A stretch of DNA of 63,644 bases from an uncultured Methanosarcinales archaeon (GCA_964576385.1 CAZNUS010000001.1:30668-94311); one strand, 5' to 3'; shown: positions 2,387 to 62,924, counted from the stretch's first letter. Notes: generated from the sequence alone by a model not told the origin. A program made the numbers and translations.

Positions 2387-2583
2387 TATAGTTGCGGACA
2401 TAAATAATTGAATAATTAATCCCCGCAACTATACAAGAAAACAAACAACGATTTGTTTTCTGTACAAAAATGAAGTAGTTTCTTCATTTTTTGTATCTAA
2501 AGGACATAACTATTCTTTCCGTAAGGAAAGTCACGAACGAAACAAAGTGGAGTGACTTGATGATATGATTATTTATGTCCTTT
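2387..2583. repeat. cluster of four adjacent or nested palindromic modules (families G/E, copy 1)
   Basis: Four hairpins are present. The first is TATAGTTGCGG...CCGCAACTATA (2387-2433). The second is GAAAACAAA-CAACGA-TTTGTTTTC (2437-2460). The third is GTACAAAAATGAAG-TAGTTT-CTTCATTTTTTGTAT (2462-2496). The fourth is AAAGGACATAA...TTATGTCCTTT (2499-2583), which encloses two inner hairpins (CTTTCC-GTAA-GGAAAG and AGTCAC...GTGACT). Confidence 0.85.
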
Positions 2584-2842
2584 ACTATATAAGGTTTTAA
2601 GCTATCTGTAGGGACCTGTGAATAACCTTTATTAAAATATTATTCAACAATTTAATGTTTTATTCCACTTGCCATAAACCATCAGCTTAACCAGAAGTTG
2701 ATAAGTATTTCACAGATTATTACTCTAAGGTAACCATTACCACTCGAAGGTTTTTAATTATCCGTTATTTCTTACACAATCAAAACAATTTCTCCTGTCT
2801 AAATCCATAATCTTTATAAAAGAGCAGTCAAACAAGAAAAGA

Positions 2843-3601
2843 ATGCCCTTTTTAGACTCTATGTTGAATCCAGTACTCCTGCCGTTACTAAAGTTAGGTC
2901 CATTTTTTACCATATTCGTCCTTTCTTTTATCATCTCGCTAATCATTGTTTTAGTTTACAAATATTTCACTAATCAAGAAGAGATGAAACGGTTAAAAGA
3001 ACTACAGAAAGAGTATACGCAGAAGATAAAGGGATTAAAGGACAAGCCAGAAGAGATGATGAGAATACAGAAAGAAGCGATGCAGTCCAATTTTCAATAT
3101 ATGAAGCACTCTTTTAAAGCTACCCTTATTACTATGCTGCCGGTTCTTCTGTTGTTCGGCTGGATGAATGGGCATTTGGCTTACGAACCAATCTTTCCAG
3201 AAGAAAATTACAGTCTTACCGCTAAGTTTGCAGAGGGGACAACTGGAGAAGCAGAATTAATCGTTGCTGAAGGAACAGAGTTGTTGAGCGAAGTGAAACA
3301 ACCGATAAATAGCGAAGCCAATTGGCGTTTGAAGAGTAAAGAAGGCGACCATCAATTAACCGTAAAAGTAGGGAAGGAAGAACAAAGCAAGAATGTCCTT
3401 ATCACGAAAGAGCTAAAATATGAAGAGTCAATCTCTTTTTATGAAAATTCCGCAATTAGCAGTATCCAAATAAATTATAATAAGCTAAGGCCGTTAGGTG
3501 GATTTTCTATGTTTGGCTGGCAGCCAGGTTGGTTGGGAATTTATATTATACTTTCCATTATCTTTAGCATCGGGTTACGAAAAGTGTTTAACGTTTATTA
3601 A
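2843..3601 (+). CDS. DUF106 / archaeal YidC-Oxa1-like (EMC3/TMCO1-type) membrane insertase homologue
   Basis: An N-terminal TM segment is followed by a K/E-rich coiled segment (EEMKRLKELQKEY...KPEEMMRIQKEAM) and then further TM segments. This is the typical DUF106 layout. Confidence 0.55.
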   Translation: MPFLDSMLNPVLLPLLKLGPFFTIFVLSFIISLIIVLVYKYFTNQEEMKRLKELQKEYTQKIKGLKDKPEEMMRIQKEAMQSNFQYMKHSFKATLITMLPVLLLFGWMNGHLAYEPIFPEENYSLTAKFAEGTTGEAELIVAEGTELLSEVKQPINSEANWRLKSKEGDHQLTVKVGKEEQSKNVLITKELKYEESISFYENSAISSIQINYNKLRPLGGFSMFGWQPGWLGIYIILSIIFSIGLRKVFNVY

Positions 3602-3611
3602 AAAAATAAAA

Positions 3612-4646
3612 ATGGGGGTTTTAAAAATGAATGAACATCAAGAACAACATCATGCTCCTGAGCATGCCGACTCCAGTAAAGCACCAACAAATAAGTTGGA
3701 TTATTGGAAAATTGGAACTTTAGTATTGGGGATACTATTGGTTGTATCAGTATTTACTAACGGGTTTAATCTTATCAGCGGACTTTCTGAAAAAGAAGCC
3801 AGCAGCAAAGCGCTTACATTTGTTAATCAAAATCTTCTGCAAGGGCAGGCAGTAGCTGAGTTAGGGGATACTAATGAAGAAGCTGGTCTTTACAGTATGG
3901 AACTAACTGTTTCAGGAAGAAAAATTACTGGATATGTTACTAAAGATGGAAAATTATTTTTTCCTCAGGCAATAAACCTAGATCAAGACCCTTCCTTACT
4001 GAACCAACAACAGCAGGCTCAACAAGCTCCGGTAGAAGTGCCTAAATCAGCTAAACCAGAAGTTGAATTATATGTCTTTACTTACTGTCCTTATGGCTTG
4101 CAGATGGAAAAAGCAGCAGCTCCCGTGGTTAAATTATTAGGCAATAAGATGGACTTCAAAATCCGCCAGATTGGAGCAATGCATGGTCCTTATGAAGAGA
4201 AAGAAGCAAAGCGACAGCTTTGTATCAATAAGTTATATCCTAAAAAGTTTTGGGACTATTTAACATACTTTGCTATAGATTCCGATATCGGGAACTGTCG
4301 TGGCGATGATACTTGTGTTAATCCTTTAATCAATAAGCTTTACAATAAGCTTAGTATTGATGGTTCAAAAGTAGATGCTTGCATGAATAAAGATGGAGCT
4401 TCTTTATACGCTGCTGAGGAAAGTAATTCTCAGCAGAATAGCGTAGGTGGATCGCCTACAATGATAATTAATGGAGTGCAATCCTCTGTAGCTAGAAATC
4501 CAGAAGCGATTAAACAAGCTATTTGTTCTGCCTTTAGCACTGAACCATCAGAATGTCAACAAACGTTAAGCTCTGATAGTGCTTCTCCTGGGTTTGGCTC
4601 AAGCACAGGTGCAGATGCTGCCGCAGCTGCCAGTTGTGGTATCTAA
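3612..4646 (+). CDS. membrane-anchored thioredoxin-fold (DsbA-like) protein with a CPYG motif
   Basis: The start was refined to the ATG at 3612 because the track start overlaps the upstream gene; an ATG at 3627 is also possible. There is an N-terminal TM anchor. YVFTYCPYGLQME sits where the DsbA CxxC normally lies. Many paired Cys residues occur in the C-terminal half. Confidence 0.45.
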   Translation: MGVLKMNEHQEQHHAPEHADSSKAPTNKLDYWKIGTLVLGILLVVSVFTNGFNLISGLSEKEASSKALTFVNQNLLQGQAVAELGDTNEEAGLYSMELTVSGRKITGYVTKDGKLFFPQAINLDQDPSLLNQQQQAQQAPVEVPKSAKPEVELYVFTYCPYGLQMEKAAAPVVKLLGNKMDFKIRQIGAMHGPYEEKEAKRQLCINKLYPKKFWDYLTYFAIDSDIGNCRGDDTCVNPLINKLYNKLSIDGSKVDACMNKDGASLYAAEESNSQQNSVGGSPTMIINGVQSSVARNPEAIKQAICSAFSTEPSECQQTLSSDSASPGFGSSTGADAAAAASCGI

Positions 4647-4778
4647 TTTTAAACATCTTTTCTTTTTATTTTTTTAAAATTTTTCTCAACATTAATCTTT
4701 GTCTTAATATCAATTTTAGTTAAATATTTATATAACTGGAACTATTCTACCCTAATGTTTAAAAAAGAGGAAGGCAGT

Positions 4779-7076
4779 ATGGTCATTTCTGTTCCAGGTT
4801 TAATTCCAGGGCTAATTTTATTTAGTCTGTTGATAATACTTAGTTCATCCTCTTCTGCGGAGATAGATTTAGATGCTAGCTTGCGATGGGCTCAAGAGAA
4901 TTATGTAGGGACAGATTTACCAAAAGGCGCTTCTTCCCTGCTTAAAAATGAACGGATTATTTTGTACGTTGAGGATAAAGAATGGGTTTTAAATGGAATA
5001 ACAAAGGATGGTAACGTTAAAAGTATTGGCAAAGGGGAACTAGACCATCCTACATTGCTTATTTACACCACTACAACTACCATTGAAGAAATATTATCAT
5101 CCCAAGATCAGATACGGGCTTTTATTGATGCTAAGAAAGGAGATAAAATAAGATTGCATCCTCTCGGTGTAGTTAGAACTGTTAAATTTTCTATTGCTTC
5201 CTTGCTCACCATATTCTTTGGAAACGATGATTCCATCCCGAAATCGGTTAATGAAGATTTGCCTGAAGATGTTCCTGAAAAAAATGTAAAACGGCGCCTG
5301 TATTCCGATACTGTCCGTCCTCTTCCCGAACCTAAGCCTCAGCAGTTGGAACCGCAATATATAACAGAAAGTGAAGAGACTGAAGAAACTGAAAACATCC
5401 CTTGTGAAACGATTGGTGATTGCTCTGATGGAAAGCCATTATGTTTTGACGGATTCTGCCGTACCCTTGATGAATTTATCGTATTAGCTAATTCCTGTGA
5501 TACTATCGAAGATTGTAGAGATGGTCAAATATGCGAAAGTAACAGATGTGTTAATGAGAGCATTCCTGAAGAAGATAGCGATGAGATAGCTTGTGAAGAT
5601 GTTGGCGATTGTCCTAGTGAGAAACCGTTCTGTCAAGGAAATATCTGTGTAAGCCTTTCTGAAGTTATCGCTGCTTCTAATTATTGTGAAACTACCGAAG
5701 ATTGCGCAGAGAATGAAGTCTGCAAAAATAATAGATGCGCTTCCTATGCTCCTCTTGGTTGGTACGCTCAGATATGTGAACTTGATGAAGATTGCCGTGA
5801 AGGCATGATTTGTAGTGACGGAAGATGTGCTATTCCTGTAGAGCCAGAAAATCCAGAAGAGCCAGATCTAGTAGGGCCTGAAAGTGAAGGAACAACATAT
5901 TCTTCTTGTGATTCTGATGAAGCGTGTGCTGCGGATGAAATTTGTGTAGCATCGGTATGTATTGTTGGTTATAGATCCTGTGATACTTCTGAAGATTGCA
6001 TAGAAGGTAAAATCTGCAGGGACGAAAAATGTGTGGCTTTAAGAGCAGTACCGCCTCCACAAGAACGTAGCGTTGGAGAAAGGATAAGAACTCTTTTTAG
6101 GACTATTTTTAGACAAGAGCCCATACCATATGGTGATGATGTTCGACCTCAAGAAGGAGATTTATGTGCACAGAATGATCGGTATAATAATGGGGTTTGT
6201 GATGAGGATTGCCCAAATCCTGATCCTGACTGTGAAGAAGCAGAAGATTGTGATAATACTATCGATGATGATGGAGACGATAGGATTGATTGCCGTGATT
6301 CAGACTGTGATTCAATAAGAAGGGATAGTGATAGAAAACGTTGCCAATATCGTATAGAAAGCAGGTGCTCTGATGATTTTGATAACGATGCAGATGGGTT
6401 TACTGATTGTGCCGATACTGATTGTGAAGACAACGATGCTTGCGCAGAACCAGAAGTTCCCGATATTTCTACGCTAGGATGGGGTGAGTTTGACCATTGT
6501 AAAAGAAGGTTATTAATTATTAATGATCTACAAACCTGTATAGGTAGTGGTTATCTCTTAAGCAATAAAGTGATAGCAGTGCGCATAGGGCCGGTAGGTG
6601 CAGATTTAACTCCTTTAGATTATGAGGTTTTAGAGCAGGATGGGGAATATGGCAGGTCAGCAAGATTATGTTCTAGCTTACAAACAATTGATCCAGTAAA
6701 CACCTTAGCAACAGCTAATGCTTCGGAGTTATATGACCAAGAAGGTTGTCCTGTTGATGGAACATATGAAGGAGTAAATGTAGGATACAGATATTTTGAT
6801 ATTCCCGTGGATGAAGATTCTACTGTTCCTATCACCTATGATCTGCAGATCAATTTTGGCAGGACAGAAGAATGTGTAGCTGGAGGGGACAAGAAAAAAT
6901 TTGAGAATAATATAAATTGCTGCGGCTATGGATCGTTAAAGAGTTTTCGAGTTCCTATAGAAAATCATGGAATAAACAAAGCTTTCTTTTTAAGATTAAG
7001 CTCAGTAGTTCCTGCTTGCGATTATTATGAATCTGCTCAGTGCAGCGTACCTAGCCTTTCCACGTGCGTAAGCTAA
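4779..7076 (+). CDS. secreted Cys-rich repeat protein (seven 6-Cys modules plus Asp-rich Cys motifs), putative surface adhesin
   Basis: An SD-like AGAGGAAGG lies 5-13 nt upstream of the ATG at 4779. A signal peptide is present (LILFSLLIILSSSSSA). There are seven repeats of C-[ED]-T/D-x-E/G-D-C-x3-5-C-x4-5-C. These are followed by CDNTIDDDGDDRIDCRDSDCD and CSDDFDNDADGFTDCADTDCEDNDAC, which look like metal- or Ca-binding Cys/Asp motifs. Confidence 0.7.
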   Translation: MVISVPGLIPGLILFSLLIILSSSSSAEIDLDASLRWAQENYVGTDLPKGASSLLKNERIILYVEDKEWVLNGITKDGNVKSIGKGELDHPTLLIYTTTTTIEEILSSQDQIRAFIDAKKGDKIRLHPLGVVRTVKFSIASLLTIFFGNDDSIPKSVNEDLPEDVPEKNVKRRLYSDTVRPLPEPKPQQLEPQYITESEETEETENIPCETIGDCSDGKPLCFDGFCRTLDEFIVLANSCDTIEDCRDGQICESNRCVNESIPEEDSDEIACEDVGDCPSEKPFCQGNICVSLSEVIAASNYCETTEDCAENEVCKNNRCASYAPLGWYAQICELDEDCREGMICSDGRCAIPVEPENPEEPDLVGPESEGTTYSSCDSDEACAADEICVASVCIVGYRSCDTSEDCIEGKICRDEKCVALRAVPPPQERSVGERIRTLFRTIFRQEPIPYGDDVRPQEGDLCAQNDRYNNGVCDEDCPNPDPDCEEAEDCDNTIDDDGDDRIDCRDSDCDSIRRDSDRKRCQYRIESRCSDDFDNDADGFTDCADTDCEDNDACAEPEVPDISTLGWGEFDHCKRRLLIINDLQTCIGSGYLLSNKVIAVRIGPVGADLTPLDYEVLEQDGEYGRSARLCSSLQTIDPVNTLATANASELYDQEGCPVDGTYEGVNVGYRYFDIPVDEDSTVPITYDLQINFGRTEECVAGGDKKKFENNINCCGYGSLKSFRVPIENHGINKAFFLRLSSVVPACDYYESAQCSVPSLSTCVS

Positions 7077-7208
7077 TTTTCTCAGTTTTTTATAGTGATT
7101 ATTCAGCTGAGCAAATAACAATTTCTTGGCATAACCTTTATAAATAATCCTCGTTCTAATCCTTAAATCCTTAAAGGGATAAACTAAAAGACATATGTGT
7201 CTTTTATA

Positions 7209-7258
7209 TATAGCAACCACTAATTATTTAACAATAATTAAGGGTGGTAGTTGCTATA
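7209..7258. repeat. palindromic module (family G, copy 2)
   Basis: The sequence is TATAGCAACCAC-TAATTATTTAACAATAATTAAG-GGTGGTAGTTGCTATA. It shares the TATAG...CTATA ends and the AATAATTAA loop with 2387-2433, but the stem sequences differ while keeping pairing. Confidence 0.75.
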
Positions 7259-7394
7259 AATCTGGAGGCGACTCGGATCACTTGTTCTGAGCAGCATTCA
7301 TTTTTTAGCATATCTTAAAATTCACAAGACAGGAAATATAGGCTAATCATTAAAGCTTATAAATAGGATATACAAATCATATTTTGAGGTAAAC

Positions 7395-7667
7395 ATGCCA
7401 GCAGGAAAGCATAAATCGGGAAGATACAGAAAAATATTTGTGAGAACACCAGGAAGCAGGACGGTTATCCATTATCGTGAACGAAAGCCTTCCCGGGCTA
7501 AATGCGCTTTATGCAAAGGTATTTTAGCTGGTGTGCCTAGGGAAATGTCCAGCACCATGCGCAATATTTCTAAATCTGCTAAAAAGCCGGAACGGCCCTA
7601 TGGCGGATACCTCTGTTCTGCCTGTACTAAGCAATTACTAATAGAAAAAGCGAGGGGAAGGAAATGA
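7395..7667 (+). CDS. rpl34e: 50S ribosomal protein L34e
   Basis: GRYRKIFVRTPGSRTVIHYRERKPSRAKCALCKG is the characteristic L34e N-terminus. An SD GAGGT lies 5 nt upstream of the ATG. Confidence 0.9.
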   Translation: MPAGKHKSGRYRKIFVRTPGSRTVIHYRERKPSRAKCALCKGILAGVPREMSSTMRNISKSAKKPERPYGGYLCSACTKQLLIEKARGRK

Positions 7668-10979: not shown

Positions 10980-11009
10980 AACTATTCTTTGGTAGTTTTA
11001 TTCTTTGAT

Positions 11010-11153
11010 AGTAGCGAACATTCATTTTATTCTAATAATTTATCGCTACTATACTCTAAAATAACCGACAGTTATTTTAGGTACAAAAATGAATAGTTTT
11101 TCATTTTTTGTATATAAAAAACATAACTATTTAGATTATTAGTTATGTTTTTT
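11010..11153. repeat. cluster of four palindromic modules (family E, copy 2)
   Basis: Four hairpins are present: AGTAGCGA...TCGCTACT (11010-11050), CTAAAATAAC-CGACA-GTTATTTTAG (11056-11080), GTACAAAAATGAA-TAGTTT-TTCATTTTTTGTAT (11081-11113) and AAAAAACATAACT...AGTTATGTTTTTT (11116-11153). The last two match 2462-2514 over about 50 nt. Confidence 0.85.
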
Positions 11154-14098: not shown

Positions 14099-14505
14099 TT
14101 TTCACCAATCCCCCTCTTTTAAATTTTTTAATAAACAAAAGTTCATTAAAGCAAAATAACTCAAAATTCACTTCTTAACTGTGCTTAACTTTTGTTACTG
14201 AGATATCAGTAAATCCCACTACTATTAAAAGGTTGTGGTTTTGCAAAATATAGGCTACCTTCTTATTTCCTCTTTTCTTTCCTGAATCTTTTACGATTCT
14301 CCAAGCAGTATGATTATTCAAAATTATTTTTGCACGTTTGCTATCTCAACTTTCATACTGCATGCTAGGGCAGAAATTGTACTTGTGCACTTGATAAATA
14401 TGTAAAGCGGAATAATCTTTGAGGATATCGCTAAATTTTGTTTTGATTTCCATCATTATTTCTCTGGATTGTTCTACCTTATGCGCTGTTAAACTCTCCG
14501 ACCTA

Positions 14506-14604
14506 CGAGTGACCGAAGGGAACGGAGTGGGGAGGACAAGGAGGAACGAAGTGACGACGAAGAGTTATGACGCAAGGACACACGTTCAGGCGAACACAGT
14601 GAGC
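14506..14604. repeat. purine-rich, locally GC-rich segment with a reiterated GAAC-N4-5-AGTGA motif
   Basis: GGGAACGGAGTGG (14518-14530), GGAACGAAGTGAC (14543-14555) and CGAACACAGTGAG (14591-14603) are reiterated. Related TCACGAAC...GTGA hairpins occur at 2531-2556 and 26809-24. Confidence 0.5.
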
Positions 14605-14623
14605 AATTAAAAAACAGTATCAA

Positions 14624-14661
14624 AGACACTCTCATCGTAACACAATCAAAATCGGGGCAGC
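14624..14661. repeat. left arm of the bipartite inverted repeat enclosing pip
   Basis: AGACACTCTCA (14624-14634) and AATCGGGGCAGC (14650-14661) are exact reverse complements of 15738-15748 and 15686-15697. Confidence 0.85.
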
Positions 14662-14723
14662 ATTTTCTTTTTATTATTGTTAAATAGTAACTTATTTAAA
14701 GAAGCTGAGGAATCCAGATATAA

Positions 14724-18354: not shown

Positions 18355-18499
18355 GTACTTATTTAGTTAGATGGCCAAGAGGTCAATTCTGCTAAGCTAT
18401 AGTGACAGGCACAGATGTGAAAATCTTCGAAATCACTACTATTTCTGATAAGAATTACTTCGAATTTTCACCAGAATTGACGGCCAACTAAATACGTAC
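18355..18499. repeat. MITE-like palindromic element, family B copy 1 (145 bp)
   Basis: Termini are GTACTTATTTAGTTAGATGGCC ... GGCCAACTAAATACGTAC. Internal arms pair (GTCAATTCTG/CAGAATTGAC and GTGAAAAT/ATTTTCAC). Confidence 0.85.
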
Positions 18500-19497: not shown

Positions 19498-19712
19498 GCG
19501 TAAGTATTTAGTTAGGTGGCCAAGAGGTCAATTTTGCTGGGCTGTTATGACAGGCACAGATGTGAAAATAACCGAAATAACTGCCATTTCCGATAAGAAT
19601 TACCTTGGATTTTCACCTGAACATTGCTCTCATCAGCAACATATAAAATTGCATTTTTGAAATTTAACCAATTTGTGCAATTTTCTATATTGACGGCCAA
19701 CTAAATACGTGC
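19498..19712. repeat. MITE-like palindromic element, family B copy 2 (215 bp, carries a 68-bp nested insertion)
   Basis: It has the same termini and interior as B1 in the same orientation. An extra 19622-19689 contains its own hairpin AAAATTGCA...TGCAATTTT. Confidence 0.85.
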
Positions 19713-20198: not shown

Positions 20199-20355
20199 GT
20201 ATTTGTTTAGCTCGGCGCGGTCAAATGGTGGATTTTGTCTTGGGAACGTTTATGAGGCCTATTGTTCGGTTCAATTGGTAAAACAATCTAGTTTTGGATG
20301 AATCGACGTAAATAAACCGACAAAACCCACGACCGCCGAATTGCTAAACAAATAC
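20199..20355. repeat. long-hairpin element, family A copy 1 (157 bp)
   Basis: GTATTTGTTTAGCTCGGCGCGGTC ... GACCGCCGAATTGCTAAACAAATAC has 13 perfect terminal bp. A GC-rich stem follows, and then GTGGATTTTGTC/GACAAAACCCAC. Confidence 0.88.
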
Positions 20356-20362: not shown

Positions 20363-21274
20363 CTAATTCGCCCGGTAATCATACTTCCAATCAGTAGGTT
20401 TAACATTTCGCATCAATTTAGCAGTAGCAATGAGATTTTTTGCTAATAATTTTGTTTCCTCGCCATAACATTCGCTTAAGACTATTTTTTTATCTTCCTG
20501 GGTTGAGTAACATACGGATGACATGGCATACATATTGCTAAATGGTGGGAAGATCATGCCAAAATGATTTAAAGTCATAAATAAGTTTGAGATGGTCATA
20601 GCAGCTCCTGCTTCATGTCCGGTAACTATAATCCCAGCAACTTTCCCCAGGAATCTTCGTAATAATCCGCTCCCTGGAACCTCATTGTCGGCAGTTAATT
20701 CTATAAATTTCATCTGTTTTTTATTCAGCTCTTTATCCTTGGGATTTTTTGGATCTGCAGGCATTAAGCTTCCATCTAAGCTAATACAGCGGTCGATGAA
20801 CGTAGCCATTAAAGTAGAAATTTTAAAATTATTAATGGGAGTTGCAAAAATGATTACATCTCCAGCGATAATCTTATCGTATAGGATATTGGTCATATCA
20901 TCCCCTGCTTTTCCGCGGGGATAGCAAGAGCAATAGAAATGGCATTGGGTGTTGGTTGTTGAATAACAAGCCTTACAATATTTGATGTTATAATTGCGTA
21001 ACGGAAGTAGTTCTATTTCTGCTCCTAAGTCCTTGCAATATCTTAAACATCTCTCTAATAATTCTTCAGAATTAGACTTCTCTTTGGCCATATCCATGTC
21101 ATCCCTGGCCGATCCAGAAATACCTACTACTTTTATTTTGCCGTTCTTTTTTTGGTTCATGCGTTTAGCTTCTGTTATTGCTGCGCTCCGTACCAGCTTA
21201 AACCTGTTTAAAGTATCTAAGTCAATCTTTAGAATTCTCATTAACTCTCTATCAGACAACTTTTTTTTGCTCAT
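20363..21274 (-). CDS. flavodoxin-fold NADPH-dependent FMN reductase / iron-sulfur flavoprotein (Isf)-like protein
   Basis: IKVVGISGSAR is present, along with a Cys cluster YCKACYSTTNTQCHFYCSC, DDMTNILYDKIIAGDVIIFATPINNF and GIIVTGHEAG. There is an N-terminal extension of about 55 aa. Confidence 0.6.
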   Translation of the reverse strand: MSKKKLSDRELMRILKIDLDTLNRFKLVRSAAITEAKRMNQKKNGKIKVVGISGSARDDMDMAKEKSNSEELLERCLRYCKDLGAEIELLPLRNYNIKYCKACYSTTNTQCHFYCSCYPRGKAGDDMTNILYDKIIAGDVIIFATPINNFKISTLMATFIDRCISLDGSLMPADPKNPKDKELNKKQMKFIELTADNEVPGSGLLRRFLGKVAGIIVTGHEAGAAMTISNLFMTLNHFGMIFPPFSNMYAMSSVCYSTQEDKKIVLSECYGEETKLLAKNLIATAKLMRNVKPTDWKYDYRAN

Positions 21275-24484: not shown

Positions 24485-24630
24485 TAAATAACTTGTAGTT
24501 AAATAATAACTAAATAATAACTAAATAATAACTAACAATTAGATTATAATTAAATAATAACTAAATCATAAATAATAATTTAATCATAAAAAATAACTAA
24601 ATTATAAATAACAATTTAATTATAATTAAA
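24485..24630. repeat. AT-only tandem repeat (an 11-mer AAATAATAACT x3 exact, then degenerate units)
   Basis: Three exact units lie at 24501-24533. Related TAAATAA(C/T) units fill the whole spacer between tal and the next gene. Confidence 0.8.
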
Positions 24631-30461: not shown

Positions 30462-30556
30462 TTATAGTAAATTGCAAAAATAATGGAACTTTTTATGTGC
30501 AATTTACTATTTAGCAAATCTCACAAATGTTCAATAATTAATGAGATTTGCTATTA
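30462..30556. repeat. double-hairpin element, family C copy 1 (95 bp)
   Basis: AGTAAATTGCA...TGCAATTTACT is followed by TAGCAAATCTCA...TGAGATTTGCTA. I read it as identical at all 95 positions to 47177-47271. Confidence 0.9.
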
Positions 30557-31991: not shown

Positions 31992-32116
31992 AGAGAAGTT
32001 TGAAAAATAGTAATTTTGGCAAATTAACTCTTATTTTACGCCAAAATTATGGCTATTTCAAATTCTCTTTAGAACTTTGCATATGATCTATTGAATTTTG
32101 CAAAGTTCTCTTAAGC
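31992..32116. repeat. double-hairpin element, family D copy 1 (125 bp)
   Basis: TTTGAAAAATAGTAATTTTGGC...GCCAAAATTATGGCTATTTCAAA is followed by AGAACTTTGCA...TGCAAAGTTCT. It matches 41995-42176 apart from a 58-bp insertion in the latter. Confidence 0.9.
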
Positions 32117-32186
32117 TATTTTCAATTTAATATAATTTACGTTATTGCCTGGTAAGATAGTTTCACGCATTTTTCTGATTCTTAGG

Positions 32187-32879: not shown

Positions 32880-32910
32880 GTACGTGTTTAGTTAGATGGC
32901 CAACTAAATA
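32880..32910. repeat. minimal family B element (31 bp; the two termini fused with no interior)
   Basis: GTACGTGTTTAGTTAGATGGCCAACTAAATA is the B 5' terminus joined directly to the B 3' terminus through the shared GGCC. Confidence 0.8.
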
Positions 32911-32993
32911 TCTCTCAAAAGGATATAACCTGTTAAAATTGGTGTAAAATTACACCAAAACTGTTTTATACTATTCTGAAAGACCCTCATCCA

Positions 32994-33894: not shown

Positions 33895-33962
33895 ATTATG
33901 CAAAAAATTTCGCTGGGTTTAAAAGCCCGCTCTTCAGAGTGAAATTTTTCTATCCTAAAAAT
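33895..33962. repeat. family F1-like hairpin (copy c; conserved ends, different interior)
   Basis: ATTATGCAAAAAATTTC...GAAATTTTTCTATCCTAAAAAT shares the ends ATTATGCAAAAAAT and TCCTAAAAAT with 38066-38146 and 52438-52518. Confidence 0.65.
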
Positions 33963-37769: not shown

Positions 37770-38065
37770 GGTTACTTGGTCTTTAATCCCCAGATCAATA
37801 GTTTAATTCTCCGCATTAATAATTGGATAGAAGTTTAAACAATGGTCATTTTTTGAGATTAACTAGGTTTAGCAACTTTTTCTCGTAAGGCCTTTTTTCT
37901 TGTAAGGCTTATACCCTAACTTATTTGAAAATTTTGTGTGTGCTCAGCAGTTACTTCCGTATCCCATTGAGGGAATGGTGTTCACCTAATCATCGCACAT
38001 TCCACGTTCTTTACTCTTTTAGAGGTATTAAAAGGCCACTTATAAAGTTTTACTCTCTATCTTTT

Positions 38066-38146
38066 ATTATGCAAAAAATAGCCAGAAAACCAGCGGCTTT
38101 AGTCGCTGGATGAATGGCACTATTTTTCTGGCTATTTTGCATCCTA
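38066..38146. repeat. hairpin element, family F1 copy a (81 bp)
   Basis: ATGCAAAAAATAGCCAGAAAA...TTTTTCTGGCTATTTTGCAT has an inner hairpin CCAGCGGC-TTTA-GTCGCTGG. It matches 52438-52518 at 78 of 81 positions. Confidence 0.9.
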
Positions 38147-38279
38147 AAAATGCGTAGTTTAGAAACCGTCTCAGTTCAAACCTCGCACGCGGAGAAAAGC
38201 AACGACTTTTCTAGCGTCCCAGAATTGTTAAGCAATTCTTAGGACTTTAGTGCGAGGTTAGACGGTTTCACGCATTTTT
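38146..38279. repeat. four-level nested hairpin, family F2 (134 bp)
   Basis: The outer stem is AAAAATGCGT..AGAAACCGTCT / AGACGGTTTC-ACGCATTTTT. Inside it are AACCTCGCAC/GTGCGAGGTT, GAAAAG/CTTTTC and AGAATTG/CAATTCT. The 3' 25 nt recur at 32160-32184. Confidence 0.85.
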
Positions 38280-38286
38280 ATGATTC

Positions 38287-39318
38287 TTATAAATCCCTAG
38301 ATGGCACTTTCAGGTCAAAACATACCCTAAACACTCCAGGAGAAAACTGTCCGCATTTTACTGCCCGCAGCACTTTTATAGAATATCCTAATTGTGAGCA
38401 CAATTTCTTTATTTTCTTTGCTTCCAAAGTGGTATCCTTTTCATTTATAAAACTGTACAAATGGATGATCCCTTTTGGCTTTATTTTCGGGAGAGCTATA
38501 TCCAGAAATTCCTCACTAGTTTTCGGCAGCGGCATAATAATTCTATCAAATGTACGTTTCAGAGTTGGCATCACTTTTCGCACATCGCCTAAATAGATAG
38601 CAATTTTATCGCTAAGATTGTTCCTTTCAATATTTGTTTCAGCATAATAATGCGCCAAAGGATTTATTTCAATCCCGTAAATTTTTTTTGCAGGTGAATT
38701 TTTAGCTAAAACTAATGGATACGGCCCTGCCCCAGAAAACATTACTAATACTTCCTCTCCTTTCTTAACCTGTTGAGCAATCCTTAACCTTTCTCCAGAT
38801 GACCTGGCAGAGAAATATGTTTTTTCCAGATGGAGAAAAATCTTTACTCCATTTTCCAAATGAGTTGTTTTTTTAGTTAATTTTCCGGCTAAAATACGCA
38901 CTTTTCTTGTCCTAAAAATACCCTCGTGCATATGTTCTTTTTTTACTACTGTTTCTATCTGCTTATTAACGTTCAAATAAGCTTCAGCAATAAGCTTTTC
39001 TTTGCTTTCCAATTCCCTTGGAATTTCTAAGATCATTATTTTTCCAACTATCTCTTGGCTTTTAGGGAGTAGCTGCATCTCTTCTTCAGTTAATTTTCCT
39101 TGTAATATTTTTTCTACGGTCAATGGCTTTGGCTTTTCAGGAAAATGTATCTTTACCTCGATTACTTCTGCATTAGGGATCTTCACTTTCTTTTTTAAGG
39201 GGAAGTACATAAACTCAAACTCTTTAAATGGCAATAATTCTGGTATGCCTAAGTTGCTTTTTAGAATAAACTGCTTAATCTTTTCCGCCTCTTTTAGTTG
39301 TGCCTTTACCGCTAACAT
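38287..39318 (-). CDS. trm5: tRNA (guanine37-N1)-methyltransferase Trm5/Taw22 family (Met-10+ like)
   Basis: Class I SAM motif VLVMFSGAGPYPLVLAK, in the typical three-domain length of about 340 aa. Confidence 0.75.
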   Translation of the reverse strand: MLAVKAQLKEAEKIKQFILKSNLGIPELLPFKEFEFMYFPLKKKVKIPNAEVIEVKIHFPEKPKPLTVEKILQGKLTEEEMQLLPKSQEIVGKIMILEIPRELESKEKLIAEAYLNVNKQIETVVKKEHMHEGIFRTRKVRILAGKLTKKTTHLENGVKIFLHLEKTYFSARSSGERLRIAQQVKKGEEVLVMFSGAGPYPLVLAKNSPAKKIYGIEINPLAHYYAETNIERNNLSDKIAIYLGDVRKVMPTLKRTFDRIIMPLPKTSEEFLDIALPKIKPKGIIHLYSFINEKDTTLEAKKIKKLCSQLGYSIKVLRAVKCGQFSPGVFRVCFDLKVPSRDL

Positions 39319-41994: not shown

Positions 41995-42176
41995 AGAGAA
42001 GTTTGAAAAATAGTAATTTTGGCAAATTAACTATTATTTTACGCCAAAATTATGGCTATTTCAAATTCCCTGAGTGAAGAAACTACTTCACTGGGGCACA
42101 AATGAAATCGTTGTTTCATTTCGTGCTCTTTAGAACTTTGCACATAATTTATTGAATTTTGCAAAGTTCTCATTAG
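41995..42176. repeat. family D copy 2 (182 bp) carrying a 58-bp nested insertion
   Basis: It is the same as D1 except for 42069-42126. That insertion is two hairpins whose cores are exact reverse complements of the cores at 2443-2454 (12 nt) and 2471-2486 (16 nt). Confidence 0.9.
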
Positions 42177-45509: not shown

Positions 45510-45520
45510 ATTATCTGTAG

Positions 45521-45548
45521 ATTATTATTATTATTATTATTATTATTA
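45521..45548. repeat. (ATT)9 microsatellite 12 nt upstream of the pyrE-pyrF start
   Basis: Nine uninterrupted ATT units lie between the upp stop and the pyrE-pyrF start codon. Confidence 0.9.
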
Positions 45549-46560: not shown

Positions 46561-47157
46561 ATGATTAGAACAATAATCTCTAAGCAGTATTGGAATATTT
46601 TCCAGCTATTTTATGCTAATCATAATAATCCTTTACATTTACGAGATATATCTAGAAAGATAAAATTAAAAGAAAGTGCTACTAGCAGGCATTTACACGC
46701 TTTAGAAAATAATAATATTCTTAAAAGTCAAAAAGATGCTAATCTTAGGAAATATTGTTTAAAAAAACAAGCTATACCGGAAATTTTCTCATTGTTTGAC
46801 GATGAAAAACTAGGGCATTTACCATTATTAAGAAAAAATGCTATTAAAGAATACTTAGCTGCTTTAAAAAACAAGCCCATTTTGATGGTTATCTTTGGCT
46901 CAACAGCAAAAGGAAATTACACCGATAATTCTGATGTTGATATTTTAGAAATATTTTCTAACAAGACTGAGACTACCAAAGCAAAGTCTCATGCTGGATC
47001 ACTTACCGGGCTAAAGATCCAGTCATTTCAGATAACTGAAGCAGATTTTTATAAAGAATTAAAAATGAAAGAAGATATGGTGATACAATCGGCTTTAAAT
47101 ACTGGATTCCCCGTATTCAATAATAAATTTTTTTATGAGTTGATTTATAATGGATGA
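46561..47157 (+). CDS. minimal nucleotidyltransferase (MNT) with an N-terminal winged-helix domain; antitoxin-type partner of HEPN
   Basis: An ArsR-like wHTH (LHLRDISRKIKLKESATSRHLHALENNNILK) is followed by the NTase motif VIFGSTAKGNYTDNSDVDILEIF. Confidence 0.7.
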   Translation: MIRTIISKQYWNIFQLFYANHNNPLHLRDISRKIKLKESATSRHLHALENNNILKSQKDANLRKYCLKKQAIPEIFSLFDDEKLGHLPLLRKNAIKEYLAALKNKPILMVIFGSTAKGNYTDNSDVDILEIFSNKTETTKAKSHAGSLTGLKIQSFQITEADFYKELKMKEDMVIQSALNTGFPVFNNKFFYELIYNG

Positions 47158-47176
47158 ATTTCATCTAAAAAAGTTA

Positions 47177-47271
47177 TTATAGTAAATTGCAAAAATAATG
47201 GAACTTTTTATGTGCAATTTACTATTTAGCAAATCTCACAAATGTTCAATAATTAATGAGATTTGCTATTA
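47177..47271. repeat. double-hairpin element, family C copy 2 (95 bp)
   Basis: Identical to 30462-30556. It lies between the MNT and HEPN genes and contains the only in-frame start candidate (TTG at 47263) for the HEPN ORF. Confidence 0.9.
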
Positions 47272-47757
47272 GCATCTAAAAATGAGCTAAATAAGAAAAT
47301 AGACACTTACTTGCATGATAAACAGATTTTTACTATTTCTGAAGAAGTTAACGAAATAAAAGGGCACTTGGAAAAAGCCGGGCATAATCTAAGATTTGTA
47401 GAGCACACTACAAAAACAGATTTTTCCGATTGGGTGTTGGTAGGCTGTTATTACACTTTGTATCATGCGGCTTTGGCTTTATTGCTGAAGAAAGGTTTAT
47501 TTTCAAAAAATCATGATGCTACTTTATGTCTTTTGATTAGAGAGTATTACAAAGAATTTTCAGAAGATGAATTTGAATTAATCAATTTTACTTTTCTGAA
47601 TAATGAAGATATCTTATTCTATATCCATGCTAAAGATAAGCGTGAACAAGCTTCTTATTCGACAAAGATTGCTTTTAAAAATTCTGATGTTAATCTAATA
47701 GTTCTAAAAACACGGCTTTTATTCAATAAGGCCAAAGAGATAATTACTAGCGAATGA
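47263..47757 (+). CDS. HEPN-domain protein (start uncertain; possibly 5'-disrupted)
   Basis: All-helical, about 160 aa, with GHLEKAGHNLRFVEH and KDKREQASYS (an R-x4-SY HEPN-like motif). It follows an MNT gene, which is the classic MNT/HEPN arrangement. There is no in-frame ATG near the 5' end. Confidence 0.55.
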   Translation: MLLASKNELNKKIDTYLHDKQIFTISEEVNEIKGHLEKAGHNLRFVEHTTKTDFSDWVLVGCYYTLYHAALALLLKKGLFSKNHDATLCLLIREYYKEFSEDEFELINFTFLNNEDILFYIHAKDKREQASYSTKIAFKNSDVNLIVLKTRLLFNKAKEIITSE

Positions 47758-48845: not shown

Positions 48846-50072
48846 TTAATTAACTTTCCTCACTACTACATTCTCAAATGCTTTAGCTTCTAACATCTCT
48901 TCGGCTTTCTTACCCAATTCTTCGGTGTATAAGAATAACAAAGGCATCTTTTTCATCTGCGCTTCCATATACGCTGAAGATAGGTCTTTTTCGTCACAGC
49001 GTTTTTTATTTTTTGCTTTACAATAATAAGTGATTTCTCCAACTGCTGAAGGAACTTTTAAGATGAAACTCATCTCAGCATTCTTTCGGATAGTTTCTTT
49101 TTGTTCAATATCAACCTTCAGATGGCGGAAAAACTTCTCCAGCTGCGGTAGGAAGGTGTCCTCTATAGGTTTACGAATTTCTTTAATGAGACTTTTCTCC
49201 TTTGATAAGGTGGACTCTTTCTTTTGGTCAACATCTTCTATATTGTTTATACGTTTATTTTCTCTTTGCTCAAACTGTTCTAAATTATTATTCTCCTCCC
49301 TATTTTTTATTTCTGATGGCTGACGAATAGTTATTGATGGTGTATTCTCAGTGTTATCATCCTTTAGCATATTATCTTTATTATAGCCTACCTCCGCTTT
49401 ATAACTGCTAGAAGAATCATTCAACGGTTTATAACTTGTTGTCGGTAATTCATTTCTTGCTTCTATAGGGGGTGGTAATGGAGAAACAGGTATTTGAGTT
49501 GAGTTACCATTATTACCCTTGTTCTTATTATTACCCTTTTCATCACCATTATAATTATTATTAGTACCACTATTATTATTATTATTATTATTATTATTAT
49601 CATTATTTTTATTATCACTTAAAGAAATACCATCAAGATAATTTCCGATATTAACATTGGCTTCTTCGGTAGAAAGAAGGTGCCATTTCCAAAACAGTTC
49701 TGTTTTTCCTTCAAAGCTAACATGTAATGGTACGGAGAAATCCTTCATTGACCTTAAGGACACTTTTTCCAGCAGGTCTAGATCTTTTTCCCGCAGTATC
49801 TTTTTTTCTTTTAATTTTTCTAAAACTTGGAAATCTTTTGGGTTAAGATTGTTGGAGGCAAATTTAAACAGTTGCTCTTCCTGTCCCGGCAGATAATAAA
49901 GAGGCGAACCGCCTACTTTTAGATTAGAAATTTTCACTTTTCCTCTTGACGCTAGATCAGAAAGGCTGGCGGAAGTGATTAATAATTGCTGGTTGATATG
50001 TTTTCCTACTTTTGTCGGTAAACTAGGTCCAGCCATCCGAAGAAAAGAAAGTATCCTGTCTTGATCATCCAT
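48846..50072 (-). CDS. hypothetical protein: N-terminal winged-helix-like domain, Asn-rich low-complexity linker, C-terminal globular domain
   Basis: ILSFLRMAGPSLPTKVGKHINQQLLITSASLSDLASRGKV is wHTH-like. A poly-N tract is encoded by (ATT)9 at 49572-49600. The C-terminal ~110 aa could be PD-(D/E)xK-like, but that is a guess. Confidence 0.4.
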   Translation of the reverse strand: MDDQDRILSFLRMAGPSLPTKVGKHINQQLLITSASLSDLASRGKVKISNLKVGGSPLYYLPGQEEQLFKFASNNLNPKDFQVLEKLKEKKILREKDLDLLEKVSLRSMKDFSVPLHVSFEGKTELFWKWHLLSTEEANVNIGNYLDGISLSDNKNNDNNNNNNNNNSGTNNNYNGDEKGNNKNKGNNGNSTQIPVSPLPPPIEARNELPTTSYKPLNDSSSSYKAEVGYNKDNMLKDDNTENTPSITIRQPSEIKNREENNNLEQFEQRENKRINNIEDVDQKKESTLSKEKSLIKEIRKPIEDTFLPQLEKFFRHLKVDIEQKETIRKNAEMSFILKVPSAVGEITYYCKAKNKKRCDEKDLSSAYMEAQMKKMPLLFLYTEELGKKAEEMLEAKAFENVVVRKVN

Positions 50073-52381: not shown

Positions 52382-52437
52382 TTTATGAAGCTCACGCTAT
52401 TAGTTTCCTATATTACAGATAACCACTTCTATTTCTA

Positions 52438-52518
52438 ATTATGCAAAAAATAGCCAGAAAACCAGCGACTTTAGTCGCTTGATGAATGGCACTATTTCTC
52501 TGGCTATTTTGCATCCTA
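52438..52518. repeat. hairpin element, family F1 copy b (81 bp)
   Basis: Matches 38066-38146 at 78 of 81 positions. It lies in the divergent promoter region between 52381 and 52684. Confidence 0.9.
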
Positions 52519-54222: not shown

Positions 54223-54381
54223 GTATTTGTTTAGCTCGGCGCGGTCATCTTTGTTTGCCGAGTTTTTGGTATTTACCGGAAAGTTCTATTTACCCGCCTT
54301 ACTAACCACACAACCATAATTTCATCGACGGTACATCTTTAGCGGGGCTCGGTAAACGACCGCCGGAAGCTAAACAAATAC
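54223..54381. repeat. long-hairpin element, family A copy 2 (159 bp)
   Basis: It has the same 24-nt termini as A1 and A3, but the interior differs and still pairs (GTTTGCCGAG/CTCGGTAAAC). The junction AAAAAAGTATTTGTTT is repeated just downstream at 54383-54398. Confidence 0.88.
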
Positions 54382-57944: not shown

Positions 57945-57990
57945 GCTATTTTATTTTCTTAAACAAAAATTATTTTCTTAGACAAAAACT

Positions 57991-59316: not shown

Positions 59317-59367
59317 GAAAACAAAAAAGCTTCAGAACTTAAATATCTTCCTGTAAAATGGCACTAT

Positions 59368-60324: not shown

Positions 60325-60405
60325 CTTTCCTCTTTTTTAGGGAGTATCATTTACTGGTTTAAAATAGTTGCTGTTGCGGAAGGTAGTTTCTGCTTTGACA
60401 AATTT

Positions 60406-60927
60406 CTATTCAGAAAGCATCTTTAATATTTCCTTACCAAATTTCTCTGCGGCAACTGGGCCATTGGCAGTAATGATCTTTCCATCAACAGTAACATCTT
60501 TTCCTGTATAACTTGCTCCCTTGCTTTCTAACAATACTGACTGCTTTTTATCTAAATTCCAAACGGTGGCTTTTTTTTCCTGCAGCACACCAGAATAAGC
60601 TAAAATAGTTGGAGCGATGCAGATAGCTGCTAATATCTTTCGTTGCAATACGGCTTCCTGAGCAATTTTTTGCGCTTCCTTATCCTGTTGGTAGGCAACT
60701 GCCCCAGGTCCACCGATAAAAACGACTGCATCATAATCCATAACTTTTACCCCTGATAAGGCTAATTCTACCTTCGTCTTTCCACCTAAAGAACCTTCCG
60801 CAAAACCTTGCTTCTTAGAAGCAGTTATTACTTTAATGCCTGCATTTTCCAAAATTTCTTTTGGAGCACTATATTCATGGTCTTGATAACCTAGCTGTGC
60901 AATAATTATTAAAACTTTTTTTATCAT
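60406..60927 (-). CDS. DJ-1/PfpI-family protein
   Basis: Nucleophile elbow AAICIAPTILA, with VVFIGGPG upstream. Confidence 0.8.
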   Translation of the reverse strand: MIKKVLIIIAQLGYQDHEYSAPKEILENAGIKVITASKKQGFAEGSLGGKTKVELALSGVKVMDYDAVVFIGGPGAVAYQQDKEAQKIAQEAVLQRKILAAICIAPTILAYSGVLQEKKATVWNLDKKQSVLLESKGASYTGKDVTVDGKIITANGPVAAEKFGKEILKMLSE

Positions 60928-60983
60928 GTTTTGTGAGAAATAGCCTGAACATTAAAAATCTAACTACTTCCTTTACGACCAAA

Positions 60984-61925
60984 TTAATAGGCACTACTCT
61001 TGATTTCTTTTTCCAATTCTTTCTTAGAGCGGTAAAAGAAGTATCCAATTACACTAAAAGTAATAACTGGAGAGATCCAAGCGGGGATATGAACTCCGAA
61101 ACTATCTGCTAACATGATTACCCCTAAGCATAGAATAGAATACATCGCTCCATTCTTTAACAATTTATACTTTTTAACTCTCTCGATATTGCCGATAGTT
61201 AACTGTCTCACTACTATAGCTCCTAATCCATTCCCTATCAAAATTAAAGGTATGGAGAGAGTGAAAGCAAAAGCTCCCAATACTCCATCTATAGAGAATG
61301 TTGCATCAATAACTTCTAAGTAAAGTATCTTGCTCAGATCACTAATTCCCGAATTTTTGTGGAGCATCTGGTGCTCAACTTTTTCTGCGTTCTGCTTAAA
61401 GCCGTGAGTGATAAAGAAAGCAGTTGAGCCGATTACTGCGCCAAATGCCATCAACGGGCTTTTTTTAAGGGCAAACCAGACTACTCCTGCTAATATAATA
61501 GAGACTACTGCAAAGAACCAAACACCTTGTCGTTCAAAAAATCTTTCTGCATGCAATCCGATAACCTTTGGCTCAAGAAAAAGCCAATGGAAGAATAAAA
61601 AGATCAAGAATATTCCTGCACCACTTAGCAAAATAGGGGCAGATGCTTCCATTGCTTCTGCTACTAACGGATCGGAGCTAAACGTAGCCATAAACGAGCC
61701 TAAGAATCCTAAACCTGGATTGGTCGCCCAGATAATTATCCAAGGTAAAAAACCTCGCACTAGGAACACGGCAATAAGAATGCCGTAACGGAGAAACCAT
61801 TTTCTTGCTTTTTGTGAAACATGTCCTAATACTTCCGCATTGATGACTGCATTGTCGATACTGTTGATTACTTCAAATAAACATAACCCTAGAACAACCA
61901 GGATCATGGAAAGTATATCGATCAT
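60984..61925 (-). CDS. DUF475 / TerC-superfamily integral membrane protein
   Basis: A SIDNAVINAEVL motif near the N-terminus and multiple TM segments. Confidence 0.5.
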   Translation of the reverse strand: MIDILSMILVVLGLCLFEVINSIDNAVINAEVLGHVSQKARKWFLRYGILIAVFLVRGFLPWIIIWATNPGLGFLGSFMATFSSDPLVAEAMEASAPILLSGAGIFLIFLFFHWLFLEPKVIGLHAERFFERQGVWFFAVVSIILAGVVWFALKKSPLMAFGAVIGSTAFFITHGFKQNAEKVEHQMLHKNSGISDLSKILYLEVIDATFSIDGVLGAFAFTLSIPLILIGNGLGAIVVRQLTIGNIERVKKYKLLKNGAMYSILCLGVIMLADSFGVHIPAWISPVITFSVIGYFFYRSKKELEKEIKSSAY

Positions 61926-62128
61926 ATTACTTAGTTCGGTTCATCTGATTTAAATATTTTCCGAAAGAAAATGCTTTGAAATGTGTTGAAGGCTTAGCAC
62001 AATGCTAGAATAATACTGTTCATTGAATAATTTCCCTCAGAAAAATAATTACATTTATCCCCTACTTAACTTCCACTTCCTTTGAACCTATCATAACTTA
62101 TTTAAATTAAGAAGGTATTGGACCAATC

Positions 62129-62740
62129 ATGCCTAAAAACAATTTCCTGTTAGTAGATCTCAATGAACCTCAAACCAAAAAGCTGGCGGAAACCATCACT
62201 TCAGAAACCAGCCGAAAAATATTAAATTATTTGGCTGATAAAGAGCACGGCACAGAAGCGCAAATATCTAAAGAATTAGCTTTACCGATCTCTACAGTGC
62301 ATTACCACCTTCAAAAACTGCTCGAAGCCAGCTTGCTGAAAGTGGAAGAATTTCATTATAGTCCAAAAGGGAGGGAAGTGAATCACTATCAGCTTGCTAA
62401 CAAGTACATTATTATCACCCCGCAAAAAATATCCGGGTTAAAAGAGAAATTGAGAGGGATATTGCCAGTTTTAGGGATAAGTTTAGGTATTGCTGCAGTG
62501 ATAAAAATAGTAACTTCCTTTGATTCAGTCTTCTTTAAAAGCAGCTCTATAGAAGCTATCAGTGAAGAAACTGCGGAATACTCTAGTTTTATGGTCGCTG
62601 AAAAAGTATCTGAAGTTGTTCCTGCAATTTCTCAATCTATTGACATAGCATTATGGTTTGCAGTAGGAAGTGTAACTACTGTGCTAATTTATGTTATTTT
62701 TGTTATAGTTAAGGAAAAATATCTTCGGAAAAGAAGTTAA
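62129..62740 (+). CDS. ArsR-type winged-helix protein with C-terminal TM segments
   Basis: ETSRKILNYLADKEHGTEAQISKELALPISTVHYHLQKLLEASLL is followed by two hydrophobic segments. Confidence 0.65.
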   Translation: MPKNNFLLVDLNEPQTKKLAETITSETSRKILNYLADKEHGTEAQISKELALPISTVHYHLQKLLEASLLKVEEFHYSPKGREVNHYQLANKYIIITPQKISGLKEKLRGILPVLGISLGIAAVIKIVTSFDSVFFKSSSIEAISEETAEYSSFMVAEKVSEVVPAISQSIDIALWFAVGSVTTVLIYVIFVIVKEKYLRKRS

Positions 62741-62764
62741 AAAAAAATAGTGTACTAAAAAAAT

Positions 62765-62924
62765 GTATTTGTTTAGCTCGGCGCGGTCAAATGTGTGGAT
62801 TTTAAATTGGGAACGTTTATGAGACCCATCGTTCGGTTTCCTCGATTCAACAGTTTATTTTTGGATGAATAAACGCATTCATAAACCGACAAAATCCACG
62901 ACCGCCGGATTGCTAAACAAATAC
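62765..62924. repeat. long-hairpin element, family A copy 3 (160 bp)
   Basis: It has the same termini as A1 and A2. The interior is closely related to A1 (GTGGATTTT/AAAATCCAC and GTTTATGA/TCATAAAC). Confidence 0.88.

Follow-up and report, generated by a model that had tools for sequence, protein, structure and literature searches.

Palindromic repeats in the spacers of a Woesearchaeota genome fragment probably comprise several families of non-autonomous transposable elements

What are the recurrent hairpins that lie between the genes of a 63,644-nt stretch of archaeal DNA (GCA_964576385.1, CAZNUS010000001.1:30668-94311; hereafter the window, meaning the whole stretch that was analysed), and how did they come to be there? 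The gene content of the window is archaeal and includes archaeal-type PheRS alpha and beta subunits, Pelota, a tRNA-splicing endonuclease, a PAN-like AAA ATPase, and other housekeeping genes. The window is a piece of a Woesearchaeota (DPANN) genome, that of a small uncultured groundwater archaeon. Its guanine-cytosine (GC) content is ~36% and its intergenic share ~15%; the final 2.2 kb is 100% identical to contig JACPNB010000099.1 (NCBI assembly GCA_016185745.1). A first reading of the sequence alone (the original prediction) described the hairpins as at least seven families (A to G) of modular, nested palindromic elements, mobile and non-autonomous, with no transposase in view. We propose, with a probability of roughly 80%, that the spacers are home to non-autonomous DNA transposons of several families (MITEs, miniature transposable elements with inverted repeats) that are moved in trans by a transposase encoded elsewhere.

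The listed elements (Table 1) sum to ~2.2 kb, which corresponds to ~22% of the spacer DNA of the window and ~3.4% of all its bases. They range from 30 to 213 nt, below the ~600 bp limit for MITEs, and none contains an open reading frame (ORF). A repeat search combined with a sensitive self-BLASTN of the window recovered the family pairs. All three termini quoted in the original prediction were located where it had placed them, far above shuffled expectation: GTATTTGTTTAGC has six matches in the window, arranged as three inverted pairs (0.15 expected), GTATTTAGTTAGATGGCC has three (0 expected), and ATTATGCAAAAAAT has three (0.31 expected). The repeat-bearing spacers also fold far more stably than their dinucleotide shuffles, with minimum free energy z-scores of -2.4 to -9.6 for 13 such spacers, compared with a mean of +0.24 for length-matched coding controls. 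Rfam searches of the window, at the gathering score and then at E ≤ 1, returned no family and only two matches, both at chance level, to a plant microRNA and a plastid untranslated region, and a search for tRNA and tmRNA genes found none.

The flanks of families A, B, and E record insertion. Family A is bounded by 13-nt terminal inverted repeats. When GTDB species, each represented by one genome, were scanned for its exact ends at a spacing of 120–150 nt, a set of 112 copies was obtained, including the three of the window. An 8-bp target-site duplication (TSD) is exact in 59/112 copies and matches at 7/8 positions or better in 84/112, as opposed to 2/112 in an offset control; no TSD length other than 8 bp fits this set. 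The target is A/T-rich and sits in a symmetric, weakly palindromic context (A-x-T-A / N8 / T-A), with T at position -10 in 81/112 copies, A at position +10 in 67/112, A at TSD position 2, and T at TSD position 7. This 8-bp flank footprint indicates a staggered cut that is repaired after insertion, i.e. DDE-type transposition. Where the A and B copies of the window retain a readable TSD (A1, A2, A3, and B1), 6–7 of 8 positions match.

Family B was found at the three sites originally proposed, with corrections to its boundary and to one copy. In every copy that could be evaluated, the true terminus lies 4 nt further out, at GTAC GTATTTAGTT…, followed by an 8-bp duplication, and the family B ends are at least 14 nt long. 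A metagenome scan with the family B ends returned 18 contigs. Among the metagenome copies (n = 17), GTAC stands at both ends in 15/17, the 8-bp TSD is exact in 11/17, and at least 7/8 positions match in 15/17 (control 0). B3, once considered an empty site, was rejected as such when the true ends became known; it is a deleted copy consisting of termini only. The difference between B2 and B1 is exactly the predicted 68 extra nt. Aligned at their terminal base, the ends of A (GTATTTGTTTAGC) and B (GTACGTATTTAGT) are identical at 9/13 positions, with the consensus GTAYKTRTTTAG. By this shared end consensus, a size of 145–175 nt, and the 8-bp TSD, families A and B are one MITE superfamily, and the proposed seven families, though indeed several, are better read as a few superfamilies.

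Family E (118–119 nt) represents another element, with 10-nt ends (GAGAAGTTTG / CAAACTTCTC) and a 4-bp A/T-rich TSD that is exact in 5/6 copies (TTAA, ATTA, TAAA, AAAA, and AATA) and matches at 3/4 positions in the sixth. No separate duplication flanks its inner 41-nt hairpin, which indicates that family E moves as a whole unit. Since the TSDs vary in sequence and are fixed in length, transposition is proven for A, B, and E, and for these families the view of the hairpins as mobile, non-autonomous palindromic elements is borne out. Decayed TSDs and identities of 78–84% suggest that the A and B copies of the window are old, and the two family C copies, 95/95 identical as originally stated, are probably recent; activity both old and young, as first proposed, fits these data.

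Beyond the window, family A occurs on 102 stretches from ~25 metagenome-assembled genomes (MAGs), where the flanking genes are unrelated. Its carriers are mostly Woesearchaeota/Nanoarchaeota from groundwater, in which a genome can hold as many as ~16 copies with exact ends, and further comprise Thermoplasmatota, Methanosarcinales, one Altiarchaeales MAG, two Acidobacteria, a Caldisericum, and another bacterium. By interior sequence, the 112 copies sort into 29 mutually unrelated clusters, and only the terminal 12–13 nt are common to all. The GC content of the elements tracks that of the host and spans 22–65%, the lowest value coming from the Altiarchaeales MAG and the highest from an Acidobacterium, with invariant ends. 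Even when stripped of the 13-nt ends, an interior forms on average ~27 base pairs that span the centre (z -3.4). In one subfamily of 20 copies, pairing holds in 97% of cells, and nine pairs are doubly changed, compared with 4.3 ± 1.1 after shuffling (0/500) and 0–3 in slid controls. Family A lineages that propagated kept their foldback, despite the kinship that inflates covariation.

Two sets of family A copies deserve separate mention. A copy in the Altiarchaeales MAG (L007, 3081-3255) and one in the Caldisericum MAG (L086, 4695-4841) belong to the same subfamily, with shared 30-nt ends that go beyond the 13-mer, and each is flanked by a perfect 8-bp duplication. That one subfamily is common to MAGs of both domains suggests either transfer between archaea and bacteria or a binning error. 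The Thermoplasmatales MAG CAZHIY01 contains six copies of a single subfamily that are ~99% identical (L034, L035, L036, L069, L095, and L098), and exact 8-bp duplications flank those at L034, L035, L036, and L069. This looks like a recent burst, and CAZHIY01 appears to be the best place to seek an active transposase.

Insertion of elements into one another accounts for the hairpins within hairpins. Set beside four intact copies, the family A copy at L013, 6669-7040 (MAG JACQNE01) proves to be split by two inserts, a complete family E element and a 92-nt double hairpin. In MAG JACPCC01 (L027), the second hairpin of a family C copy has a 56–60-nt double hairpin within its loop, with the flanks ATGT/GTGT. 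Comparison of interrupted with intact copies shows that elements insert into elements, giving hairpin-within-hairpin mosaics, and the originally proposed nesting is thereby upheld. The 3-of-4 flank repeats at nested double hairpins (ATGT/GTGT here and CCCT/CTCT in E2) are only suggestive. Several structural details of the window held on re-examination: the E copies differ by a double hairpin (54 nt present in E2, 41996..42171, and absent from E1), two small hairpins are enclosed by three concentric stems in the fold of 38146-38279, and only the ends are conserved between A2 and A1/A3 and between F1c and F1a/b. The enlarged fourth hairpin of D2, put at 58 extra bp, is present and measures ~45–58 nt.

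Families C and D are built from smaller units. When 879 kb was scanned for hairpins that stand on a TAGT…ACTA foot, 22 were identified, compared with 3–9 in shuffles; nearly all are 43–46 nt long, with differing stems and TA or TTA flanks, and they include the first hairpin of C and the first hairpin of D. The family C doublet is found in four other MAG loci as well, always flanked by TTA…TTA, and its stems differ by compensated changes (TTGC/GCAA vs CAC/GTG). Family D modules are found separately and in other orders in other MAGs, which confirms their description as modular. We infer a second class, flanked by TA/TTA and composed of the ~45-nt TAGT…ACTA mini-hairpins of the C and D modules. 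The families are thus not limited to the window: besides A (~25 genomes) and B (18 contigs), family C, the D modules, E, and the element at 38189-38285 recur in other Woesearchaeota MAGs. F1 was seen in the window only, and no element of the window was identified as the originally listed F2.

Table 1. Palindromic elements of the window (positions counted from its first letter).
Element	Coordinates	Strand	Description
Family A copy A1	20199..20355	.	157-nt foldback MITE; ends GTATTTGTTTAGC / GCTAAACAAATAC; 8-bp TSD ACTAATCC / ACCAATTC (6/8); adjoins stop codon of FMN-reductase gene (20363-21274, minus strand)
Family A copy A2	54223..54381	.	159 nt; 25-nt ends as in A1/A3, interior different; TSD AGAAAAAA / AAAAAAAG (6/8)
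Family A copy A3	62765..62924	.	160 nt; 84% identity to A1; TSD AAAAAAAT / AACAAAAT (7/8); base-for-base in independent NCBI assembly JACPNB010000099.1
Family B copy B1	18355..18499	.	145 nt; true ends GTACTTATTTAGTT... / ...AACTAAATACGTAC; TSD GGAGGGAT / GGGAGGAT (6/8); convergent spacer
Family B copy B2	19500..19712	.	213 nt, equal to B1 plus a 68-nt double-hairpin insertion; ends (GTAA / GTGC) and TSD decayed
Family B copy B3	32880..32911	.	Internally deleted remnant; termini only 8 nt apart (GTACGTGTTTAGTT AGATGGCC AACTAAATAT)
Family C copy 1	30462..30556	.	Doublet of ~45-nt mini-hairpins (TAGTAAAT…ATTTACTA; TAGCAAAT…ATTTGCTA); TTA at both flanks
Family C copy 2	47177..47271	.	95/95 identical to copy 1; between nucleotidyltransferase and HEPN genes, overlapping the predicted TTG start of the HEPN gene
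Family D copy D2	2360..2592	.	Four hairpins in a row; first is a TAGT…ACTA mini-hairpin (2389-2431); fourth encloses ~45–58 extra nt (two small hairpins)
Family D copy D1	10985..11151	.	Same four hairpins as D2, with compensated stems (GTAGCGA / TCGCTAC vs GTTGCGG / CCGCAAC)
Family E copy E1	31993..32110	.	118-nt MITE; ends GAGAAGTTTG / CAAAGTTCTC; exact 4-bp TSD TTAA
Family E copy E2	41996..42171	.	176 nt; exact 4-bp TSD ATTA; 54-nt double-hairpin insertion 42072-42125, flanks CCCT / CTCT
Concentric hairpin element	38146..38289	.	Adjoins TRM5/TYW2 stop codon; 38189-38285 is 91% identical to a copy in MAG JACPCC01 (L027)
Partial copy of concentric element	32139..32184	.	83% identical to 3' arm of 38146-38289; adjoins ThiI stop codon
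Family F1 copy a	38056..38146	.	91-nt hairpin: ATGCAAAAAATAGCCAGAAAA … TTTTTCTGGCTATTTTGCAT
Family F1 copy b	52428..52518	.	93% identity to F1a; divergent spacer
Family F1 copy c	33895..33960	.	Only ends in common with F1a/b (ATTATGCAAAAAAT … ATCCTAAAAAT); 3' boundary approximate

The source of the transposase was sought in the window and at the family A and B loci. As originally noted, no transposase is in view: none of the ~50 ORFs of the window encodes a transposase, an integrase, or a RAYT/Y1 domain. The search for an autonomous partner at the 102 loci covered A end pairs 250–7000 nt apart, orphan ends beside ORFs, and recurrent ORF families. Long end pairs were rejected as autonomous elements because all of them are nested insertions, and the ORFs beside orphan ends were rejected as transposases, being ordinary genes (radical SAM, methyltransferases, histidine kinase, and SSB). 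Viral contigs scanned with the family A pattern gave 0 matches.

One lead concerns IS66. An 8-bp duplication and ends starting with GTA are typical of the IS66 family. Families A and B share the 8-bp target duplication, and the ends of ISBst12-type elements begin GT(A/G)A; by contrast, A ends start with GTAT and B ends with GTAC. ISDge4, of the ISBst12 group of DDE elements with a single ORF, has the ends GTGACTACTCAGCA / GTAACTGCTCAGCA (GTGACT…/GTAACT…) and the 8-bp direct repeat CCTCGATG (PMC12898284). Beyond GTA, the A and B ends have no similarity to ISDge4, and no IS66-type transposase was found beside any A or B copy in the loci examined. Drawing on two generic features and the general description of the family, the IS66/ISBst12 link may serve as a lead and is not an assignment.

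How, then, would these elements move, and which other explanations compete? Under the preferred reading, that of MITEs mobilised in trans, insertion would proceed by a DDE-type staggered cut followed by gap repair, duplicating 8 bp (A/B) or 4 bp (E). The terminal 12–13 nt would be the site of transposase binding and cleavage. The foldback may be needed for, or favoured in, propagation; it may join the two ends, or may be kept by arm-to-arm correction. Several points weigh against this reading. No autonomous element with these ends occurs in ~880 kb (the window, 102 A loci, and 18 B loci), so that mobilisation in trans by a transposase encoded elsewhere has to be inferred. Because the family A search demanded exact ends, their invariance is partly built into it, and the covariation test of family A is inflated by the common ancestry of the copies. 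In C, D, and F, duplications are inseparable from palindromic TA/TTA extensions, and the 92-nt insert in L013 and the 68-nt insert in B2 are without a clear TSD. The closest relative genome is only ~65% identical at the protein level (one window enzyme) and offers no empty-site comparison; other assemblies with window proteins are from the same strain, at 100% identity (L103 and L104).

The position of the elements bears on a host function. Family A is intergenic in 106/112 copies; the classifiable copies (n = 80) occupy 52 tandem, 24 convergent, and 4 divergent spacers, where the background counts are 277/99/79. Where a gene's 3' end faces the copy, the median distance is 34 nt, with 33/100 within 15 nt; for a facing 5' end it is 88 nt, with none within 15 nt. 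Together with the window elements that adjoin stop codons and the compensatory changes that kept the family A stems, this placement could mean that the hairpins are host-selected cis elements (terminators or stabilisers of mRNA 3' ends) that look repeated because they share a function. We consider this very unlikely. The variable 8-bp and 4-bp duplications prove insertion, and the same element lies beside unrelated genes in many genomes. The original suggestion of terminators next to stop codons holds as to position, in that A copies lie just behind stops, but not as to sequence: coding-strand T5+ runs are present in 21/82 cases and A5+ runs in 16/82, i.e. without excess, and no orientation bias relative to the upstream gene was found. 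This parity and lack of bias speak against an oligo-T terminator reading, and targeting of T-tracts by family A found no support either. G-U and C-A cells are about equally frequent in family A stems, which, with the lack of orientation bias, means that nothing points to strand-specific RNA. Some elements, moreover, lie in divergent spacers (B3, F1b, and D2) or directly 5' of start codons (D2 and B2). A terminator role of family A has no specific sequence support and is unproven; target preference and selection against promoter disruption would be sufficient to explain the position behind genes. Still further from the evidence, and extremely unlikely, is a reading of the elements as structured small RNA genes or as recombination sites such as integron attC. 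Conserved termini around unrelated palindromic interiors do resemble the attC architecture, and the taxa that carry family A overlap those reported with archaeal integrons. However, Rfam had no counterpart even when the threshold was relaxed to E ≤ 1, spacers hold single, scattered copies and not cassette arrays, and no integrase was found among the ~50 window ORFs. In attC, R'' (RYYYAAC) lies 5' and R' (GTTRRRY) 3', in arrays beside intI, whereas the GTT…AAC boxes read here from the sequence are in reverse order (GTTTAGC 5' and GCTAAAC 3'). Finally, each copy has its own duplication sequence, a variation that site-specific recombination would not generate. CRISPR, attC, terminator, and small-RNA readings were all rejected.

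For the C and D modules and the nested inserts, a different mode of movement is possible, if on balance doubtful: they would be palindromes like repetitive extragenic palindromes (REPs) and bacterial interspersed mosaic elements (BIMEs), or of the IS200/IS605 type, moved by a single-strand (Y1/RAYT-type) transposase. The mini-hairpins are uniform in length (43–46 nt), with a conserved TAGT…ACTA foot and variable, compensated stems, they exceed shuffled expectation (22 units per 879 kb vs 3–9), they stand singly, as doublets, or in arrays of varying order, and some nested insertions have no clear TSD. The REP/BIME of enterobacteria are similarly short imperfect palindromes with a conserved foot, forming mosaic clusters in spacers, often behind genes. 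They differ in being 20–40 nt long, with a GTAG foot, in leaving no duplications, and in their dependence on RAYT, for which neither a gene nor a Y1 counterpart was found among the ~50 window ORFs, and the larger window families have clear duplications. DDE elements that duplicate TA/TTA would account just as well for the steady TA/TTA flanks of the mini-hairpins, 4-bp repeats with a 3/4 match border two nested double hairpins, and a single-strand transposase is inapplicable to A, B, and E, whose duplications are clear. C, D, and F may be TA/TTA-duplicating MITEs or REP-like single-strand elements. A broader conjecture, which extends the preferred reading and which we hold to be clearly unlikely, is that the foldbacks with the shared consensus (GTAYKTRTTTAG … CTAAAYAMRTAC) are a cross-domain superfamily whose transposase is supplied from outside the reduced DPANN genomes in which most copies sit (by a host, a partner cell, or an undetected mobile element), and that the foldback itself is selected, being required for transposition or kept as a 3'-end hairpin. 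Were such outside supply true, shared subfamilies could mark host-symbiont or gene-exchange partnerships, e.g. the Altiarchaeales and Caldisericum copies.

Compared with known elements, the preferred MITE reading places the hairpins in an established class. Prokaryotic MITEs (e.g. Correia/NEMIS of Neisseria and the SM elements of Sulfolobus) are likewise small, non-coding, multicopy, intergenic, and hairpin-forming, with terminal inverted repeats, TSDs, and no internal transposase. Family A differs from these in keeping identical 13-nt ends across 29 interiors, archaeal phyla and some bacteria, and 22–65% GC. The Stowaway and Tourist superfamilies combine conserved ends, a fixed duplication, uniform size, and stable structure with interiors that are heterogeneous between subfamilies, and family A shows exactly this end-conserved, interior-variable pattern; they differ in being eukaryotic (plant) elements with 2–3 bp TA/TWA duplications and Tc1/mariner and PIF/Harbinger transposases. 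A literature search found the terminal strings (GTAYKTRTTTAG; GAGAAGTTTG; TAGTAAA…) in none of the papers covered, in agreement with the first impression that no family with these termini had been described. A census made in 2024 with MITE-Tracker on 8,220 archaeal genomes lists "a Woesearchaea genome" among the densest, at 105 MITEs per Mb, and gives no family descriptions (PMC11602168). In bulk, then, the MITE richness of Woesearchaeota had been recorded before; not so the families with their ends, duplications, distribution, and nesting. As MITEs, the hairpin families are a known kind of element, and their invariant ends, maintained foldbacks, and lack of an identifiable partner transposase take them somewhat beyond the routine.

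Other features of the window stand apart from these families. The long spacers at 7077-7663 (587 nt) and 14099-14723 (625 nt) contain none of the repeat families; within the former, 7385-7618 is 68% identical to a stretch of another Woesearchaeota MAG (L099), which suggests that an uncalled small gene or RNA may be there. An A/T-rich tandem array with periods of 11, 18, and 36 nt (unit TAAATAATAAC) lies at 24500-24629 between a transaldolase gene and the next ORF, and comparable low-complexity arrays are neighbours of family A copies at loci from Thermoplasmatales and Altiarchaeales (L007, L035, and L093). The sequences at 62924-63002 and 63569-63644, likely the pair first listed as family G, do not belong among the palindromes: they form a 79-nt direct repeat, 92% identical and non-palindromic (…TTATCTCCTTCTTTTAACCCACCTTACGCCTAGCCATACTAATGCGCCTGCGATT), which runs on to position ~2234 of L103. 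There, a DUF4349 gene has its 3' end within the second copy, so that the first may have arisen by duplication of a gene fragment. The region 4755-7076 encodes a 773-aa Cys-rich protein, probably secreted, with internal repeat modules (DNA repeats at 5382-6082) and a DUF7107 match. ATT trinucleotide runs occur at 45521-45548, in a spacer, and at 49548-49615 (~23 units), within an ORF (48846-50072, 408 aa) that has no family match. Genes for an MNT-like nucleotidyltransferase and a HEPN protein (46561-47757), with family C copy 2 between them, are a likely toxin-antitoxin pair.

Dense mobile DNA is not the first expectation for the very small genomes of DPANN archaea. At least three classes of element now have precisely defined ends, TSD length, size, and target, in a form usable for annotation and for the transposase search, and these definitions help to avoid taking the hairpins for terminators or small RNAs. 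Subfamilies common to unrelated MAGs could mark gene exchange or binning errors. The 13-nt ends, invariant across phyla and across 22–65% GC, point to an unusually conserved interaction between transposase and element ends.

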